Sequence record: KX130865
Strand: one strand, 5' to 3'
Source of the DNA: Shigella phage SHSML-52-1
DNA length: 64,000 bases
Both the position numbers and the translations under genes were made by a program. The notes under the pieces were generated by a model. It did not search any database, was not told the DNA's origin, and was given only the letters and a program-made list of their open reading frames with translations. Shown here one piece after another: positions 16,416 through 57,854 of this stretch. Positions within the stretch are counted from its first letter, which is position 1; every line of letters starts with the position of its first letter.

Positions 16416-16931
16416 TTATGGCCTCATATAAACATAGTTTCGTAATTGTTGTGCCCATTTGCTCCAATTTCCTACTATAGTTTTTGTATAAACCTTAGTA
16501 AGAGTTTTTTGTACTGGAGCCGGTGGAGGTTCTGTACCAGAGTCACTTCTTGTGCCGCCTGATGAACTTTCTTCTTGGTAGTTATAAATCATTTCAACCG
16601 TATAACTAAACACTTTACGAAGATTCTGAGGAGCTCTCCACAAATATAACTGTGTGGACTCATCTTTTGGTAAATCATCCCATGAAGATGCGGTTTCAAA
16701 ATCATCATTTAATCGGTATTTCAATGCGTCCGAAGAAAAGCTAAACACACTTTCATATGTTCCATATAAACGATTACCATCTACCGTAATGCCTTGTGTC
16801 GGTTCATAATCTGTTATATTTATTGACACTAAAGTTTCGGTTGTTTCTAACTGTGGAGTAAAAAGGACGTCAATAGACGCCCCTTCCATGTCTTCTCCTA
16901 AGTCGGTATTTAAAGGAAGTATTTGTGCCAT
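16416..16931 (-). CDS. 5.1: conserved hypothetical protein gp5.1
   Basis: 171 aa ORF between 5 and 5.4, as in T4. Confidence 0.65.
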
Positions 16932-23112: not shown

Positions 23113-23149
23113 TTTACATGCTAATAGGACTATGGTATAGTAGTCCTAT
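23113..23149 (+). promoter_or_regulatory. early promoter cassette (-35 GTTTAC, -10 TATAGT inside inverted repeat)
   Basis: GTTTAC 23113-23118, 17-nt spacer, TATAGT 23136-23141; arms ATAGGACTA 23124-23132 and TAGTCCTAT 23141-23149. Confidence 0.6.
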
Positions 23150-23171
23150 CAAAATTAATTAGGAAAATAAA

Positions 23172-23480
23172 ATGAAAACCTACAAAGAATTTATCAATGA
23201 AGCGGCTGCACCAAAGACATTCGTTATTAATACTCAAGCGAGTCTTGATGATGAGTACGCGGAAGCAATTCTGAGGTCACTTGCTAAGAACGGCGTTGAA
23301 GTAACTGCATCAGACTTTAAGAAAGGGGCTCCCGAGATGTTTATTTCTATAGTTAAAGGATCTAAAGCTAAGATTAAATCATCATTCGGAGTTGCTCGTA
23401 CCGATCAAATCGACAGTCATGACTTTAAACAAACCGGCGTTAAACGGCAGAATACGATTGCATCACGCGGAATAAAATAG
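23172..23480 (+). CDS. capsid-targeted internal protein-like (CTS MKTYKEFINE)
   Basis: 102 aa; N-terminal MKTYKEFINE with I-N-E gp21-type cleavage context; body unrelated to the other CTS proteins. Confidence 0.6.
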   Translation: MKTYKEFINEAAAPKTFVINTQASLDDEYAEAILRSLAKNGVEVTASDFKKGAPEMFISIVKGSKAKIKSSFGVARTDQIDSHDFKQTGVKRQNTIASRGIK

Positions 23481-23492
23481 TTTATAAAACCG

Positions 23493-23530
23493 TTTACTTT
23501 TAGATAGGGTAGTGATACTATTACCCTATC
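23493..23530 (+). promoter_or_regulatory. early promoter cassette with 9-bp inverted repeat
   Basis: GTTTAC 23493-23498; TACTAT 23516-23521; arms GATAGGGTA 23503-23511 and TACCCTATC 23522-23530. Confidence 0.6.
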
Positions 23531-23549
23531 AACTACTGAGGAGAATAAA

Positions 23550-23735
23550 ATGAAACGCGCTGAACTGATTCGTAATGTTGCTGTAGTAATTGCTTCAATG
23601 GCTTTTAGTTTTTCGATGTTTGTAGGATTCATTTGTGGACTACTGACAACAACTGAAAATTCTATCTCATTGGTAGTAGCATTTCTAATCGGTTTAATCG
23701 CTATTGTTATGGATAAAATTGCAAAAGGTGAGTAA
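23550..23735 (+). CDS. small membrane protein (two predicted TM helices)
   Basis: 61 aa, hydrophobic stretches VAVVIASMAFSF and LVVAFLIGLIAIV; GAGGAG SD. Confidence 0.5.
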   Translation: MKRAELIRNVAVVIASMAFSFSMFVGFICGLLTTTENSISLVVAFLIGLIAIVMDKIAKGE

Positions 23736-26384: not shown

Positions 26385-26417
26385 GGTATCTAGGGCATAA
26401 AAATATTTCATAAAGAT

Positions 26418-26446
26418 GTTTACTTCTTCCCTAGATGTGTTACTAT
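26418..26446 (+). promoter_or_regulatory. early promoter (-35 GTTTAC, -10 TACTAT)
   Basis: GTTTAC 26418-26423, 17-nt spacer, TACTAT 26441-26446. Confidence 0.55.
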
Positions 26447-26474
26447 AGACCTATCAAAACATGGGGAGAATATT

Positions 26475-26978
26475 ATGAGTCTTTACACTGAACTGAATAA
26501 AAAATCTGAAGAATCTGCTGAAACTATTTTTAAAAACGTGCAAAAGCGTATTTTGGAAAAGATGTACGATGCAGCATCTAAAGGTGAAAAATCTTGCCGG
26601 TTTCCGATGAGGTGTTCTTCTGATTTATGCGCAAATACTATTGAATGGCTGGAAAGTGAAGGTCTTACGGTAGAGAAAAACCCGGCGACTTCTATTGACA
26701 GTGAATCATATATTAGTATTTCTTGGGATAAATCAAGGGTAGAAGAGAAAGATGGTGATTGGGTTGTAGATGTTAAAACTTCTGATGGTGGACGTTCTGT
26801 TGAAGTTTCAGCTGTAGTTAAAGGTACCCACGAACAAAGGACTTGGGGTTGGGGTGGTGAAGAAAAAGAAATTGTTCTTAGTGTGATTGCCAGGTCAACT
26901 AGTAATAAAATTGCACAAAGCATCATCTATGCTGCATGTATCGAAGCTGGAAAAATTTGCAAAATTAAAAATAAATGA
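26475..26978 (+). CDS. hypothetical protein
   Basis: 167 aa; SD GGGGAG; downstream of early promoter. Confidence 0.55.
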   Translation: MSLYTELNKKSEESAETIFKNVQKRILEKMYDAASKGEKSCRFPMRCSSDLCANTIEWLESEGLTVEKNPATSIDSESYISISWDKSRVEEKDGDWVVDVKTSDGGRSVEVSAVVKGTHEQRTWGWGGEEKEIVLSVIARSTSNKIAQSIIYAACIEAGKICKIKNK

Positions 26979-33867: not shown

Positions 33868-33897
33868 AATAAATACCTCCTATAAACGTGGGAGGTA
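33868..33897 (+). promoter_or_regulatory. late promoter-like AATAAATA plus SD-sequestering hairpin of gene e
   Basis: AATAAATA 33868-33875; arms TACCTCC 33874-33880 and GGAGGTA 33891-33897, the right arm being the SD of e; same layout as the classic T4 e control region. Confidence 0.6.
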
Positions 33898-33899
33898 TT

Positions 33900-34388
33900 A
33901 TGAATATATTTGAAATGCTTCGTAATGACGAAGGTCTTAGACTGACTTTATACAAAGACACTGAAGGCTTTTGGACGATTGGCATAGGCCATTTAGTAAC
34001 AAAGAACCCGTCTTTAGCCGTAGCTAAAGCTGAACTTGACAGAATGATCGGCCGTAAATGCAACGGTACAATTACCCTTGATGAGGCTGAAAAGCTATTT
34101 AATGAAGACGTTGATAAAGCTGTCCGCGGAATCTTGGGTAATGCTAAACTTAAACCGGTATATGATTCTTTAGATGCAGTTCGTCGGTGTGCATTGGTCA
34201 ATATGGTCTTCCAAATGGGTGTAGCAGGAGTCGCCGGTTTTACTAATTCTCTTCGTATGCTTAAACAGAAACGTTGGGATGAAGCGGCAGTAAATCTAGC
34301 TCAATCTAAATGGTATCGTCAGACACCTAATCGCGCGAAACGCGTAATCTCAACATTTAAAACAGGAACTTGGAAAGCGTATATATGA
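33900..34388 (+). CDS. e: endolysin (T4 lysozyme e)
   Basis: Begins [32 protein letters not shown], near-identical to T4 lysozyme; start at ATG 33900 not the upstream GTG. Confidence 0.95.
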
Positions 34389-34666
34389 AAACATATAGTG
34401 AATTTTTATCAGAATCTATTCTTAACGAAGCTACTGACACATTTGCAACTAAGCTAGGTGCAGCTTTGGTTGAAGCTGAAAGTCTATTAGCACGTATTTC
34501 TGAACTTGCTAGTAAGATAGATACTCGCAAATTTGAACGTACCAGCGATATCGCTAAGCTTGAAGCCTTGTTGCGTATGTGCGATAAACCAGAAGAAATC
34601 GCTAAGAACGGCTCGCTGATGAAACAACGTCTTGAAAAATATATTTCAGGCGCTTCAGAAAAATAG
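34385..34666 (+). CDS. capsid-targeted internal protein-like ([13 protein letters not shown])
   Basis: 93 aa from ATG 34385 (ATGA overlap with the e stop); L-S-E cleavage context. Confidence 0.6.
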
Positions 34667-34667
34667 T

Positions 34668-34697
34668 GTTTACTTCCTCTAAGGGTTTTGATACTAT
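34668..34697 (+). promoter_or_regulatory. early promoter (-35 GTTTAC, -10 TACTAT)
   Basis: GTTTAC 34668-34673, 18-nt spacer, TACTAT 34692-34697; upstream of denV. Confidence 0.55.
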
Positions 34698-34724
34698 ACA
34701 TTCATCAACTACTTGGAGGAAATT

Positions 34725-35138
34725 ATGACTCGTATCAATTTAACACTTGTTTCTGAACTGACCGATCAACATCTTATGGCTGAGTATCGTGAATTACCAC
34801 GCGTATTTAGTGCAGTCCGTAAACATGTCCAAAACGGTAAACGTGTAAAGGATTTTAAAATCTCTCCAACATTTATCTTAGGCACAGGTCACGTAACATT
34901 CTTTTACGACAAACTCGAATTTTTACGTTTACGTCAAATCGAGCTAATTGCCGAATGCTTGAAACGTGGTTTCAAAATCAAGGACACGACAGTCCAGGAT
35001 ATTTCCGACATCCCTGCCGAATTTCGTAATAATTATGTCCCGTCCGAAGCGTCCGTTGCGATAAGTCAAGCACGCTTAGATGAAAAAATTGCTCAACGTC
35101 CTACTTGGTACAAATACTATGGTAAATCAATTTACTAA
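34725..35138 (+). CDS. denV: endonuclease V (pyrimidine dimer DNA glycosylase)
   Basis: 137 aa beginning [28 protein letters not shown], near-identical to T4 DenV; GGAGG SD. Confidence 0.95.
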
Positions 35139-36736: not shown

Positions 36737-37099
36737 ATGAAAGCATATCAAATTCTTGAAGGCACACACAAAGGCACTATTTATTTTGAAGACGGTACTC
36801 AAGCCCGGATTATTGTCTCTAAGACTTTTAAAGAAGACGCTATTGTAGACCCGGAAATTTTCTACGGTTTACATGCCCGCGAAATTGAAATTGAACATCA
36901 ACCTAAAGTTAAAATTGAAGGTGGTCAACACCTGAACGTTAATGTTCTGCGTCGTGAAACTCTGGAAGATGCAGTTAAGCATCCAGAAAAATATCCGCAG
37001 TTGACCATCCGTGTATCCGGTTATGCAGTTCGCTTTAACTCTCTGACTCCGGAACAGCAGCGTGACGTTATCGCTCGTACCTTTACTGAGAGTCTATAA
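36737..37099 (+). CDS. autonomous glycyl radical cofactor (GrcA/YfiD-like)
   Basis: 120 aa; C-terminal half [60 protein letters not shown] matches the E. coli GrcA glycyl-radical domain as I recall it. Confidence 0.85.
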
Positions 37100-37323: not shown

Positions 37324-37579
37324 AGATATTAAAGGCTACAAGCCACATACCGACGATAAAATCGGTAAAGTGAACGCTATTAAAGATGCAGAAGTCCGTC
37401 TTGGATTGTTGTTTGATGCTCTGATTGAAGAAGCATATATCTTGAAAGAAAATGAAACAGAGCAACAAACCAAAGAAGATATGGATGCAGTACAGGCTCT
37501 TAAGTATGCTAAGCAACATCTAAAAGAAGCCAGCATGTGGGCCTGTCGTGCAGTATTTCGACCTGAGGAAAAATACTAA
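37313..37579 (+). CDS. hypothetical protein
   Basis: 88 aa from ATG 37313; chosen over the 144-aa overlapping track ORF from 37145. Confidence 0.45.
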
Positions 37580-37878
37580 TGGCTCAAATCCTATCGGGCT
37601 TTGGAACTCATTATGAAGCATCTCGACGCATAACTGAAAGCAATCCTTTTGGCCTTGTTCCGAAGCACAAGAAAATTCAAAGCCTTGATGACTTTGAGAA
37701 CCGCCTATGGGCCCTCTTTAATGAGTACAAGGCATATCTGAAAGAAGACGCTGACGATTGTCTTGAAGAAGATGAGATTGCGTATTACGAACAACGCCTT
37801 GAACAGCTCAAGAACTTCCATCAGGTTCGTGACGAAGTATCTAAAGCAGTTAAAAAGTTAATTCCTTTCAAAGAGTAG
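37579..37878 (+). CDS. hypothetical protein
   Basis: 99 aa; ATG overlaps upstream stop. Confidence 0.5.
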
Positions 37879-37926
37879 TTTACTTCTCCTCTAGTTGTGT
37901 TACTATAGACTTGTCAACTAGAGGAG
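37878..37926 (+). promoter_or_regulatory. regB early promoter cassette with 12-bp perfect inverted repeat containing the SD
   Basis: GTTTAC 37878-37883; TACTAT 37901-37906; arms CTCCTCTAGTTG 37886-37897 and CAACTAGAGGAG 37915-37926. Confidence 0.65.
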
Positions 37927-37934
37927 AAATCAAA

Positions 37935-38393
37935 ATGACTATCAATTCGGAAGTTTTTATCCGCCGTAATAAACTCCGTCGAATCTTTGAAACGGAGTTC
38001 CGCAAAATAAATGCCGGTATAAAAGATGCTGCAAAGTCTCTTGGACTACCAGGCTTTCATATCAAGTATTCTCAACATCTCTTAGATCGTGCCATCCAGA
38101 GAGAAATAGATGAGAATTACGTTTTTGAATTATTTCATAAAGTAAAAAATCATGTTAAAGAAGTTGCAGAATTTTTATCAATGCCGGCACGTCCAGATGT
38201 TGATGAAGATTTTGTCGAAGGTGTCGAATATCGCCCAGGCCGTTTAGAAATAACTGACGGAAATCTTTGGTTAGGACTTACAGTTTGTCGCGAAAATCCA
38301 GCATTCAAAATGAAGACTCTTCAATGCAGAATGGCTATTATTAACAGTAAACGACTACCAGGAAAAGCTTCTAAAGCAGTGATTAAAATCTAG
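37935..38393 (+). CDS. regB: RegB site-specific endoribonuclease
   Basis: 152 aa beginning MTINSEVFIRRNKLRR and ending RLPGKASKAVIKI, near-identical to T4 RegB. Confidence 0.92.
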   Translation: MTINSEVFIRRNKLRRIFETEFRKINAGIKDAAKSLGLPGFHIKYSQHLLDRAIQREIDENYVFELFHKVKNHVKEVAEFLSMPARPDVDEDFVEGVEYRPGRLEITDGNLWLGLTVCRENPAFKMKTLQCRMAIINSKRLPGKASKAVIKI

Positions 38394-38401
38394 AGGTAAA
38401 C

Positions 38402-38944
38402 ATGAGAAAAGCACTACTCGCTGGTCTATTTGCTCTTTCGTTATCAGCACATAGCTCCGAGCATACTTTTAGTAATGTCCAACTCGATAACTTGAATTAT
38501 GCTTATCAGTTTGGGGAACAGTTTTCTAAGGATGGAAAATTTAAAACGCATGAAAATATGCATAAGAAAGGACTTGGATACATAATGGCCGCAATACTAT
38601 GGCAGGAATCATCTGCCGGTATTAATCTTAAAGATAAGAAAGGTCACCATGCGTATGGAATGTTCCAAAACTATCTACCAACAATGAGGGCAAGAATTAA
38701 CCAGCTTGGTTATAATATGACTGATGCCCAAATTAAGAAAATGCTATCTAAGCGGTCTAATTCAGCAAGATGGGCTTATATCGAATTTTCTTATTGGTTA
38801 AATATACATAACGGGGATATAAGAAAAGCTATATCCTCATATAATGCGGGATGGAAGACAAGTGCTGGAAGTAAATATGCTTCTGAAGTCCTAGAAAAGG
38901 CTAATTACCTTAAATCAAATAAACTACTGGAAATAAAAGAATGA
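38402..38944 (+). CDS. secreted lytic transglycosylase-like protein (SLT/lysozyme-like fold)
   Basis: 180 aa; signal peptide MRKALLAGLFALSLSAHS; catalytic-like ILWQESSAG and MFQNY, YNAGW motifs. Confidence 0.6.
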   Translation: MRKALLAGLFALSLSAHSSEHTFSNVQLDNLNYAYQFGEQFSKDGKFKTHENMHKKGLGYIMAAILWQESSAGINLKDKKGHHAYGMFQNYLPTMRARINQLGYNMTDAQIKKMLSKRSNSARWAYIEFSYWLNIHNGDIRKAISSYNAGWKTSAGSKYASEVLEKANYLKSNKLLEIKE

Positions 38945-41496: not shown

Positions 41497-41507
41497 GGCG
41501 TCTATCA

Positions 41508-41557
41508 GTTTACTTCTCCTCAGGTTGTGTTATAGTAGTCTTTACTTACTAGAGGAG
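41508..41557 (+). promoter_or_regulatory. early promoter cassette (-10 TATAGT; CTCCTC/GAGGAG arms)
   Basis: GTTTAC 41508-41513; TATAGT 41531-41536; right arm GAGGAG 41552-41557 is the SD of the next ORF. Confidence 0.55.
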
Positions 41558-41563
41558 AACGTT

Positions 41564-41743
41564 ATGACACGTAAAGAAAAGATTTCTAAGTTGATGTTTT
41601 TGATTGAAGAGTACGCTAATGCGGTATCTGATTGGGAAAATGCTCATGGTTGCGAAGATGGAGACATCGACATTAACAGAGCTATGAAAAAGATGGCCGA
41701 CGCCCACACTGAATTGCAAATGTATGTTAACGAGATTATGTGA
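41564..41743 (+). CDS. hypothetical protein
   Basis: 59 aa from ATG 41564 (GAGGAG SD). Confidence 0.45.
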   Translation: MTRKEKISKLMFLIEEYANAVSDWENAHGCEDGDIDINRAMKKMADAHTELQMYVNEIM

Positions 41744-42302: not shown

Positions 42303-42833
42303 ATGAAAATTGTAATTGAAACAACCGAGTTGTTTGGTGATTTATGTATCGAAAAACGTGGTTATGCTTACGTTCTGACACAAGAAGATGATTCTGTTAC
42401 TATTCTTCCTATGGAACTAGACAAGATTTTGAAACTCAATCCGCCAGGCCATGCAGCTGTAATTAACATCGATGAAGACCTCCAAGTTCGTTTTTATCCT
42501 GGACTTTACAACGCGGCCAATATCGAAACTGAAGACGAATGTTTTTCTATTAATAATTGGAAAACATTCGTCACTAAGGTGAAAGAATTAATGGAATCTG
42601 AAATAGCCAAAAAGGCCAAACTTCAATGGGCTAAATGCCGTAATGCTTTTATTACAAATCAGGACCGCCCTGACTATACAACAGTCCTAGGCGTTAATCC
42701 TTCTTATGAAGATGGCGATGTTGTAGTTATTCGTCAAATTGATGACCTTCGTCAACATATCGTTACATTAGACAAAGATGAAGCAGTTGCTCTTAAAGCT
42801 TATCTCGATTCTATTATCCCGACTTTGAAATAA
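42303..42833 (+). CDS. hypothetical protein
   Basis: 176 aa from ATG 42303. Confidence 0.55.
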   Translation: MKIVIETTELFGDLCIEKRGYAYVLTQEDDSVTILPMELDKILKLNPPGHAAVINIDEDLQVRFYPGLYNAANIETEDECFSINNWKTFVTKVKELMESEIAKKAKLQWAKCRNAFITNQDRPDYTTVLGVNPSYEDGDVVVIRQIDDLRQHIVTLDKDEAVALKAYLDSIIPTLK

Positions 42834-46107: not shown

Positions 46108-46136
46108 GTTTACAAGGTCTATGGTTATGTTATTAT
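46108..46136 (+). promoter_or_regulatory. early promoter (-35 GTTTAC, -10 TATTAT)
   Basis: GTTTAC 46108-46113, 17-nt spacer, TATTAT 46131-46136; AGGTCTAT/ATAGACCT arms. Confidence 0.55.
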
Positions 46137-46163
46137 AGACCTATCAACTACTGGAGGTAAAAC

Positions 46164-46691
46164 ATGAACGCTAAAGATATTTTCAACCTGGTAAATTATA
46201 ACGACGGTAAATTTAAATCTGAAGCACAAAGCAAGTTCTTTAATGACGTTGCTTATGATAACGAGATTACCGTGGACGGAGGTCAGATTTTCAAATCTCG
46301 CTGGAATTGGATTGTTATCATCGATTCAGTTGGAATTGTGGAAGTCTACAAAAACACTAACAAAAAACGTACATTATTCTGGTCTCGTGAAACTAACGAG
46401 CAGTACAAAAAGGATAAAGCGTCTCGTTTATCCAAAGTAACCCAGGAAGATATCGAGTTTATCAAGAAAGATATCGAGATGTACGAAAATTTAATCGCTG
46501 AAGACCAGGCAGTACTCGACAAGTTTGATGAAATTAAAGCTTCTCGTGAAATCCCTGACTTCATGAAAGAAACAGTAAACGAACGATACGCTCTCACTTC
46601 AGAACGTATTGCAAACTATACAAAACAGAAAGCAGAACGTATTAGTACTCTTCGGAAATTTGAAGAACGTTTAAAGACGGTTCACGCATAA
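46164..46691 (+). CDS. hypothetical protein
   Basis: 175 aa; GGAGG SD. Confidence 0.55.
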   Translation: MNAKDIFNLVNYNDGKFKSEAQSKFFNDVAYDNEITVDGGQIFKSRWNWIVIIDSVGIVEVYKNTNKKRTLFWSRETNEQYKKDKASRLSKVTQEDIEFIKKDIEMYENLIAEDQAVLDKFDEIKASREIPDFMKETVNERYALTSERIANYTKQKAERISTLRKFEERLKTVHA

Positions 46692-52766: not shown

Positions 52767-52977
52767 TAATTTAATTCAGGCTCATGTAAAACCGGTCTAA
52801 ACGGGGAACCTCTCTAGTAGACAATCCCGTGCTAAATGTTCTTTTGAACTAAATGCCTAACGACTAACCGTGATGAATGTAGCGGTGTAGAATAGAAGCT
52901 AATGCTATTCGAAACGGCCGGCATCGAAAGATGAAGATATAGTCTAATCTGCATGGCGACATGCAGCAGTCATCTTG

Positions 52978-52985
52978 TATAAATA
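52978..52985 (+). promoter_or_regulatory. T4-type late promoter TATAAATA upstream of I-TevII
   Basis: Exact TATAAATA 30 nt upstream of the I-TevII ATG, inside the intron. Confidence 0.55.
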
Positions 52986-53014
52986 AGATTATCTTATGAA
53001 TACGAGGTGAAACA

Positions 53015-53785
53015 ATGAAATGGATAAAAAGACGTTGTACTAAAATAAAAGATAAAGACGCATTTACATACTTAGTTAAGTTTTCTAATGGTGACATTTA
53101 TATCGGTTATAAAAAATTTAGAACAATTAAAAACAAGCCCACAAACTGGAAAACTTACACAACGTCATCTAAGTATATAAATGAACGCTTAAAAACTGAT
53201 ACACCTACTAAATGGATAATTTTAAAAACATTTGATAGTTATAAAGATGCATTAAAACATGAAGAAGAGGTCATACGTAAATATTTTTATAGCAAAAAAT
53301 GTTTAAATAAATCCATAGGCGGTAAAAAGTTTTATAAGCATCCGGATACTGAAGAACATATTCAAAAATTAAGAGATGCTCATAAGGGTAAAGTGTTATC
53401 CGAATCTCATAAAAACAGTATAAAATCTTCTGTAGCTGAATATTATGCTAAAAACGGAAGATCTAAGGAACATGTGCAAAATAATATCAATAGTCGAAAA
53501 AGTAAAAAACAAGTATCGATAAAGCTTAAAAATAAAACTTTTAGAAGTTTTAAAAAAGCAGCGGAATATTTAAATTGCACTGAAAGTGAAGTCGAAACTC
53601 ATCCTCTTGTTTTGAGTATTAAGACTACTATTCATAAAGTTCCTGAATATGTGGTTGTTGACGGTATTAAGTATACGTCTTATATAGAAGCAGCTAAAGC
53701 GCTAAATTTTCATCCTAGCACTATAAAAGAACGTTGCATATCTATGGACTATCCAAATTTTGTTGTTTCATATAAACGGGCATGA
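53015..53785 (+). CDS. I-TevII: intron-encoded GIY-YIG homing endonuclease I-TevII
   Basis: 256 aa inside the nrdD intron; N-terminal GDIYIGYKKF...KHEEEVIRKY is GIY-YIG-like; size and position as T4 I-TevII. Confidence 0.85.
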   Translation: MKWIKRRCTKIKDKDAFTYLVKFSNGDIYIGYKKFRTIKNKPTNWKTYTTSSKYINERLKTDTPTKWIILKTFDSYKDALKHEEEVIRKYFYSKKCLNKSIGGKKFYKHPDTEEHIQKLRDAHKGKVLSESHKNSIKSSVAEYYAKNGRSKEHVQNNINSRKSKKQVSIKLKNKTFRSFKKAAEYLNCTESEVETHPLVLSIKTTIHKVPEYVVVDGIKYTSYIEAAKALNFHPSTIKERCISMDYPNFVVSYKRA

Positions 53786-56520: not shown

Positions 56521-56605
56521 ATCCCATTTCTAATATAATCTATTGGAATCCTCACTTCACTATCTCCTTGTGCCCCTCTCAAATCAAAAATATTTTCATA
56601 AAACA

Positions 56606-56634
56606 GTTTACATCCTCAATAGTTGTGTTAAGAT
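56606..56634 (+). promoter_or_regulatory. early promoter (-35 GTTTAC, -10 TAAGAT)
   Basis: GTTTAC 56606-56611, 17-nt spacer, TAAGAT 56629-56634. Confidence 0.45.
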
Positions 56635-56662
56635 TAAACCATCTACTATAGAGGAAAATAAA

Positions 56663-56911
56663 ATGATTAGTTTAGATTCAAAGAAAGTTGTTCTAACCCT
56701 TAAAGTTAATGACGAGCGTCCGGTATTCGTTACCATTTCCGATTTGCATGTTGAAATTGCTAATGGTGTTCGTACTTATCAAGCAAATAAAACTCATTGG
56801 GACTATATCCCAATGTTGACGCTTACTCAGCGTTTAGAATCAATCGGTCTTAAAGACCTTTCAGTAAGTGAAGTGAATTTTATCAAACGCATTGTATCAA
56901 TCAACCTCTGA
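56663..56911 (+). CDS. hypothetical protein
   Basis: 82 aa from ATG 56663 (GAGGAAAA SD). Confidence 0.5.
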   Translation: MISLDSKKVVLTLKVNDERPVFVTISDLHVEIANGVRTYQANKTHWDYIPMLTLTQRLESIGLKDLSVSEVNFIKRIVSINL

Positions 56912-57551: not shown

Positions 57552-57614
57552 TAATGTACAACGATAGGAAGACATGTTATTATCTTCCTATCGTCTTAAA
57601 ATTAGGAAAATATC

Positions 57615-57854
57615 ATGGCCCAAGAATTAGATTTTATCAAATTCAAAAAACACCTCGACGTTAAAATTGGGGATTCAAATGTTAGGATTGAGTATGACAT
57701 TTTAACAGATGCTATTACTGTTAGTTGTGATGGAAATAGTTTCAGCTTCGATACAACCGAAAACAAATACCCAATCTATAAAGGCATCTTTGATATGGGT
57801 GTTGATATTACTCCACGTGATACAAATTACTTACTTTTCATGCTTAAAAAATAA
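57615..57854 (+). CDS. hypothetical protein
   Basis: 79 aa; AGGAAAA SD. Confidence 0.5.
   Translation: MAQELDFIKFKKHLDVKIGDSNVRIEYDILTDAITVSCDGNSFSFDTTENKYPIYKGIFDMGVDITPRDTNYLLFMLKK

Follow-up and report, generated by a model that had tools for sequence, protein, structure and literature searches.

The regB gene of Shigella phage SHSML-52-1 was analysed within a stretch of 64,000 nucleotides (sequence record KX130865; hereafter the window). Positions 37500-38500 are 99.7% identical to Escherichia phage LF82-41, a member of Mosigvirus, the genus of which RB69 is the type member, whereas identity to T4 over the same interval is only about 75%. The gene order (denV ... vs.3, regB, vs.1, vs) is the same in the window and in T4. 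The regB coding sequence (37935-38393, + strand) encodes a protein of 152 amino acids that matches Pfam REGB_T4 (E = 4e-69) and shares 78% identity with T4 RegB. The upstream gene (37579-37878, +; 99 amino acids, taken from the ORF list) falls into the same PHROG family (phrog_2037) that is assigned to the T4 coding sequence at the vs.3 position, and is referred to here as the Vs.3 homologue; its TAG stop codon (37876-37878, +) lies 5 nt 5' of the left arm of the inverted repeat described below. Further upstream, an ORF of 120 amino acids (36737-37099, +) carries a glycine-radical domain (Pfam Gly_radical, E = 2e-18); its homologue in Klebsiella phage Boboto is annotated as 'putative autonomous glycyl radical cofactor', and its positional counterpart in T4 is vs.6.

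The regB promoter and its inverted repeat

The regB gene is preceded by a promoter of the T4 early type, GTTTAC-17-TACTAT with an upstream TG. The -35 element GTTTAC (37878-37883, +), assigned from sequence, aligns with the -35 element of the T4 regB promoter, and motifs of this type were found again at 23 early-type promoters in the window. The extended -10 element TGtTACTAT (37898-37906, +; TG at 37898-37899, TACTAT at 37901-37906) aligns with TGgTATAAT of T4. The spacer between the two elements is filled by the left arm of a perfect inverted repeat of 14 bp, TTCTCCTCTAGTTG (37884-37897, +), which constitutes an anti-Shine-Dalgarno sequence, and the -10 element is located within the 17-nt loop (37898-37914). 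The right arm, CAACTAGAGGAGAA (37915-37928, +), holds the Shine-Dalgarno (SD) sequence GAGGAG (37921-37926), including a RegB-type GGAG (37923-37926), at a distance of 8 nt from the regB ATG (37935). The first-pass annotation had described a 12-bp perfect repeat with the arms CTCCTCTAGTTG (37886-37897) and CAACTAGAGGAG (37915-37926), which occur in the sequence exactly at these positions, although the length of the repeat was understated; its placement of TACTAT between the arms and of GAGGAG in the right arm, 8 nt 5' of the ATG, was likewise borne out. From promoter geometry, transcription is predicted to start at G37913 (+), the 7th nucleotide past the -10 element, 2 nt 5' of the right arm and 16 nt past the left arm, and this position aligns with the A of the conserved start region CCTATCAA of other early promoters.

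The perfect repeat, which can be lengthened to arms of 19 nt at 89% complementarity, exceeds in length every other perfect inverted repeat of the hairpin type (loop of 3-40 nt) in the 64-kb window. The window contains 5 perfect 12-mer repeat matches, 3 of them in the regB element, compared with a mean of 0.275 expected per window from 200 dinucleotide-preserving shuffles. No late promoter (TATAAATA) was found near the hairpin, and Rfam 15 covariance models run over the regB element produced no match at E <= 1. An intrinsic (Rho-independent) terminator was considered and rejected because the hairpin has no U-tract, being followed by AAATCAAAATG, and because the terminator scan made no call there. 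The promoter-hairpin feature at regB is real, strong and, as detailed below, conserved.

Predicted accessibility of the regB ribosome-binding site

RNA spanning the 65-nt regB element folds with a minimum energy of -21.6 kcal/mol (z = -3.6), and none of 200 shuffled sequences was as stable. The helix was kept in a 221-nt context, in the minimum-energy as well as the centroid structure, and GAGGAG was fully paired in both kinds of fold for both RNA lengths. For an RNA begun about 7 nt past the -10 element (near G37913), the SD was predicted to be free of structure. When accessibility was expressed as the ensemble cost of unpairing the 17 nt from the SD to the AUG, opening the site required 17.3 kcal/mol in the read-through RNA versus 2.9 kcal/mol in the RNA from the embedded promoter (own-promoter RNA); the corresponding values for T4 regB were 17.9 and 5.0 kcal/mol. 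These predictions support the earlier proposal that read-through transcripts would sequester the SD and that transcripts from the embedded promoter, lacking the left arm, would leave it open, and they supply the comparison of leaders by folding that had been suggested as a check. The likeness to gene e drawn in the same annotation is also apt, as regB and gene e share the highest opening cost (17.3 kcal/mol each) among the 96 SD-bearing gene starts of the window, for which the median is 5.1 kcal/mol. The third-highest cost in the window (14.2 kcal/mol) belongs to a minus-strand gene start at 16458 (112 amino acids), where the SD lies within a long hairpin (16456-16540). Pairing of the regB spacer with its own SD region (-23.1 kcal/mol) was stronger than with the SD regions of other promoters (mean -11.3 kcal/mol), and the regB combination ranked first of 23 in both directions among the early promoters of the window.

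The occurrence of read-through RNA across the hairpin in this phage is plausible from the arrangement of the region. Upstream of regB, its strand carries early-type promoters at 34669, 35410 and 35775, the genes between 35886 and 37878 are closely packed, and no convincing gene-strand terminator was found upstream of regB within the latter stretch. The equivalent T4 region, from the denV promoter to regB, gave no gene-strand terminator calls either.

To assess conservation, regB loci were taken from 47 IMG/VR contigs and from 11 genera with annotation; among them, 48 upstream variants were distinct. The layout is kept in most of the enterobacterial Tevenvirinae sampled, including T4, while the arm sequences differ and covary. 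In T4, the arms UUUUCCUCUUGACUG and CAGUUAAGAGGAGAA form 15 pairs (2 of them G-U; -23.1 kcal/mol, z = -4.7), giving the same layout with another sequence. The spacer-type left arm was found in five named genera, Gelderlandvirus, Dhakavirus and Kanagawavirus among them, as well as in several lineages without a name, and the upstream stop codon was always situated 5-12 nt before the left arm in hairpin-bearing genera. The anti-SD and SD change together (CUCCUC/GAGGAG, CUCCUG/CAGGAG, CUCCUU/AAGGAG, AUCCUC/GAGGAU and CCUCCU/AGGAGG). A two-tier hairpin, in which an inner G+C-rich stem surrounds the -10 element and an outer stem includes the SD, is present in Jiaodavirus and a related group. In Gaprivervirus TH44 (L006, 559-600), the -10 box TATGAT and the bases following it pair with the SD, the AUG and two codons, forming a hairpin of -16.9 kcal/mol (z = -6.2); the classification of Gaprivervirus as unmasked was consequently rejected, its regB being masked through a left arm that differs from the spacer type. 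In Tegunavirus the isolated hairpin is weak (z = -1.3, not significant), and in context the opening cost is 11.9 versus 2.3 kcal/mol. Using opening costs, which require no alignment, the site was predicted to be closed in read-through RNA (6-21 kcal/mol) and open in own-promoter RNA (1-5 kcal/mol) throughout the enterobacterial Tevenvirinae lineages except Marfavirus, where a stem surrounds the -10 element and the SD is left free. Krischvirus regB showed no masking, and a promoter directly upstream was absent. In the Aeromonas phages Tulanevirus and Biquartavirus (L011 and L012), SD masking is weak, and an intrinsic terminator (GGGCTCTTCGGAGCCC followed by a T-run) precedes the regB promoter, about 90-60 nt upstream of regB.

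The covariation test covered a 15-pair helix in an anchored alignment in which 25 distinct variants were represented, 7 of them without a spacer-type left arm. Double-sided changes were observed in 56 cells, against 26 in shuffles, and the covariation score of 0.282 (0.125 in shuffles) was reached by none of 500 shuffles, with slid-register controls at 0.065-0.115. When MAFFT was applied to the natural upstream regions as they stand, the arms fell out of register; the alignment used instead takes the SD and anti-SD as anchors and has a constant linker. This biases the four core pairs towards pairing, and most weight was therefore given to the flanking pairs and to the opening costs, for which no alignment is needed. 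The sense fold was the more stable one in 10 of 24 variants (T4 and L041 favouring sense, L044 and L023 antisense), so that the G-U pairs provide no proof of action as sense RNA over action at the DNA level. In addition, part of the covariation does not represent independent compensatory mutation at regB, since cassettes have been exchanged between genes, as described in the following section.

Related cassettes and known hairpins

An inverted repeat around the -10 element is general among the 23 early-type promoters on the + strand of the window. Pairing of the spacer with the 16 nt following the -10 element amounted to -7.16 kcal/mol for cognate and -4.71 kcal/mol for non-cognate combinations, and no permutation was as low. 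In most of these promoters the right arm consists of the conserved start region AGNCCTATCAA and not of the SD, which suggests that the stem has been selected for some reason besides SD masking. Promoters of this kind with a -10 repeat span 22758-57615 (+; for example, 23113-23172, 23493-23550, 46109-46164 and 57555-57615), the last of these including a perfect 12-bp repeat, ACGATAGGAAGA/TCTTCCTATCGT (57561-57594), with a AGNCCTATCAA-type start region as its right arm. Another perfect 12-bp inverted repeat, GACGAATGTTTT/AAAACATTCGTC (42534-42572, +; loop of 15 nt), is not associated with a recognised promoter.

The SD lies inside the right arm at five promoters, 26419, 34669 (denV), 37879 (regB), 41509 and 56607, and spacer-to-SD pairing was stronger for cognate than for non-cognate combinations (permutation p = 0.0005). 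The denV cassette (34666-34727, +) consists of GTTTAC, an anti-SD UUCCUCUAAG in the spacer, the -10 element in the loop and CUUGGAGGAA at the SD, and precedes the denV ATG at 34725 (PHROG endonuclease V). The remaining three are the cassettes at 26416-26477 (+; UUCUUCCC/GGGGAGAA, preceding an ORF of 167 amino acids), 41506-41566 (+; UUCUCCUC/GAGGAGAA, 59 amino acids) and 56604-56665 (+; CCUCAAUAGU/ACUAUAGAGG, 82 amino acids). The view of the module as specific to regB thus did not hold, given a nearly identical cassette before denV and at least three further genes sharing the layout. Within the one 6-kb stretch of T4 that was inspected, denV likewise has an SD-type cassette (L060, 4853-4916, -; arms UCUCCUGUAG/CUACAGGAGA, -18 kcal/mol), which is nearly identical to the regB cassette of Dhakavirus (L037, 1140-1203, +), indicating that whole promoter-hairpin-SD modules have been swapped between unrelated genes.

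The -10 repeats of the window resemble the promoter-early stem-loop (PeSL) elements described by Arbiol et al. 2010 and Comeau et al. 2014, which are early promoters with stem-loops, mostly between the -35 and -10 elements or over the -10, that are repeated and exchanged (PMC2839356, PMC4122927). Stem-loops over the -10 have been described in RB49/phi1, and other positions in T4/PST and nt-1/KVP40; one PeSL lowered reporter expression as much as a strong terminator, and the stems have been interpreted both as recombination sites and as elements that terminate or attenuate transcription, with no mention of translation or regB (PMC2839356, PMC4122927). The regB cassette shares with PeSLs a strong early promoter placed straight after an upstream stop codon, a stem enclosing the -10 element, an SD and ATG at the 3' end, and presence in many copies per genome that are shared between unrelated genes. 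In contrast to PeSLs, among whose five described positions none has the SD as the 3' arm, the regB stem uses the SD in this way; it also differs from the G/C-tract-type PeSL stem that was tested (PMC2839356) in not being rich in G/C tracts and in having no U-tract.

The second known class comprises the hairpins of e, soc, 49 and I-TevI, in which the SD is buried on RNA started upstream, while RNA from an internal promoter lacks the 5' arm and is translated (PMC3014915). For T4 gene e the block has been established experimentally, with about 100-fold inhibition, and regB is absent from the list of genes with such hairpins in the same review (PMC3014915). The gene e hairpin of the window, AAUACCUCCUAU/GUGGGAGGUAUU (33872-33899, +; -18.3 kcal/mol), lies directly 5' of the ATG at 33900; a late promoter close to the consensus, AATAAATA, is situated partly within its 5' arm and partly ahead of it, as is known for T4. 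A hairpin at 52970-53017 (+), whose 5' arm contains TATAAATA and whose 3' arm contains the SD GAGGUGA, precedes an ORF of 256 amino acids at 53015, requires 12.8 kcal/mol to open and resembles another late-promoter mask of the e/49 type. As in e, soc, 49 and I-TevI, the regB SD is predicted to be paired in read-through RNA, and the promoter is placed such that its own RNA would lack the 5' arm. Unlike in those genes, where a late promoter (TATAAATA) goes with delayed translation, the regB promoter is of the sigma-70 early type, and the predicted effect is the opposite of that in e and 49, with translation being limited to the first minutes and not delayed. In the literature searched, neither a regB nor a denV hairpin was found to be described, and an earlier mention in the primary regB papers or the T4 genome review (PMC150520) is possible.

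RegB cleavage, alternative explanations and proposed function

T4 regB has a typical early promoter, which becomes inactive 2-3 min after infection (PMC3014915). According to the summary given in that review, RegB cuts within the SD of its own mRNA, a cleavage that T4-related phages, RB69 among them, have conserved (PMC3014915, citing Sanson & Uzan 1993 and Piesiniene et al. 2004). The locus in the window agrees with this autogenous control, as summarized there, in having GGAG in the SD and an early promoter immediately upstream. The RegB target is an 11-nt single-stranded sequence, GGAGRAYARAA, at which secondary structure is inhibitory (PMC1702504). The suggestion in the first-pass annotation that GGAG within the hairpin forms an autoregulatory node is accordingly correct as regards cleavage by RegB of its own SD, which had already been published, but not as regards the role of the structure: as RegB needs single-stranded RNA, the hairpin would hide GGAG on read-through RNA and not present it, and in the predicted folds GGAG is single-stranded only in the own-promoter transcript. 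Whereas the published control operates on single-stranded RNA, the hairpin would thus constitute an added layer that keeps the ribosome as well as RegB off read-through RNA. The RegB-type site of the window, GGAGAAAUCAA (37923-37933, +), agrees with the consensus at 8 of 11 positions and departs from it at positions 7-9. None of the well-cut T4 RegB sites has a C at position 9, as GGAGAAAUCAA does (PMC1702504), and efficient self-cleavage should for this reason not be assumed in this phage. Other Mosigvirus contigs (L013-L015) have an A at position 9 of the site.

The hairpin is probably an early-promoter variant of the translational mask known from genes e and 49, built as a PeSL-type cassette. 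The main rival, unlikely and further weakened by two of the observations below, holds that the stem acts on transcription, as a PeSL attenuator or insulator that halts or weakens what arrives from upstream before the promoter starts it anew, with the position of the SD in the 3' arm being incidental to compactness. This follows the proposal of Arbiol et al. 2010, and PeSLs over the -10, as well as one as strong as a terminator, are known (PMC2839356, PMC4122927); it would also fit the generality of -10 repeats in the window, from most of which the SD is excluded, and the -10 stem with a free SD that is retained at Marfavirus regB. However, a U-tract follows the stem in no genus and no terminator was called, the PeSL stem that was tested is of a G/C-tract type unlike the regB stem (PMC2839356), and the SD is paired through at least three geometries (a spacer arm, a -10-box arm and a two-tier stem), with the anti-SD following changes in the SD, including GGAU/AUCC. 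It is the absent U-tract and the three SD-pairing geometries that weaken this explanation. The spacer, being C/T-rich, might be complementary to the purine-rich SD by chance, as TTCTCC-type spacers are common to several early promoters and pair at about -11 kcal/mol with any GGAG-type SD; this explanation is effectively refuted by the shuffles (a perfect repeat of 14 bp where 0.275 twelve-mer matches are expected per shuffled window), by the cognate duplex being 12 kcal/mol better than the non-cognate mean, and by pairing that is conserved with covariation between genera.

Alternatively, the palindrome might act in DNA and not in RNA, either in single-stranded or cruciform form, for example as a recombination site moving PeSL cassettes, or as a site for a promoter protein. 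The lack of a sense-strand bias in fold stability among the variants is compatible with this, as are the mutual recombination shown for PeSLs (PMC2839356) and the visible sharing of denV and regB cassettes; the explanation is nonetheless improbable, in that the right arm is bound to the SD, which is meaningful only in RNA, the G-U pairs of T4 and L041 correspond to A-C mismatches on the opposite strand, and the arms vary freely while their complementarity is kept, which speaks against a sequence-specific protein site. Coupling by hairpin melting is established in other phage systems, and translation of regB on polycistronic RNA could depend on ribosomes that finish vs.3 and melt the base of the helix, as the stop codon precedes the left arm by 5-12 nt in all hairpin-bearing genera. 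A ribosome ending at the vs.3 stop in this phage, 5 nt before the left arm, could by our reasoning briefly open the first few pairs. From the size of the ribosomal footprint, however, no more than about 4-5 of the 14 pairs would be within reach of such a ribosome, leaving the first G of GGAG paired, and the same cassette occurs behind unrelated upstream genes, making coupling very improbable.

Under the favoured reading as a translational mask, regB would be expressed from a compact PeSL-type early cassette in which the promoter spacer doubles as an anti-Shine-Dalgarno sequence. Polymerase arriving from upstream early or middle promoters would copy both arms, and the 14-bp helix in the resulting read-through RNA would bury the regB SD, prevent binding of the 30S subunit and conceal the GGAG target from RegB. 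RNA from the embedded promoter, starting about 2 nt before the right arm, would carry an open leader of 22 nt and would be both translated and exposed to RegB. RegB would then be produced from own-promoter RNA only, and later read-through towards vs.1 and vs would yield no further RegB and no cut at the regB site. The repeat, the fold energies, the conservation and covariation and the reuse of the cassette at other genes are results of the analysis, whereas the start site, the occurrence of read-through RNA and the effects on translation and on RegB cleavage in this phage are inferred. More tentatively, the PeSL sub-class with an anti-SD in the spacer (regB, denV and others) could possibly serve as a general 'promoter-of-origin' switch, by which own-promoter RNA alone would be translatable and read-through RNA would be silent and shielded from RegB.

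If this is true, such PeSL stems would be translational gates and not terminators, and they would provide a cis-encoded reason why early-protein synthesis ends at early-promoter shut-off though transcription goes on. To the known limits on RegB, namely early-promoter shut-off and self-cleavage of its mRNA, the hairpin would add a third, purely cis-acting layer. As the device is also present before T4 denV and several genes of the window, it may represent a general design rule of T4-type early cassettes, and it points to another role for certain stem-loops that have so far been called terminators.
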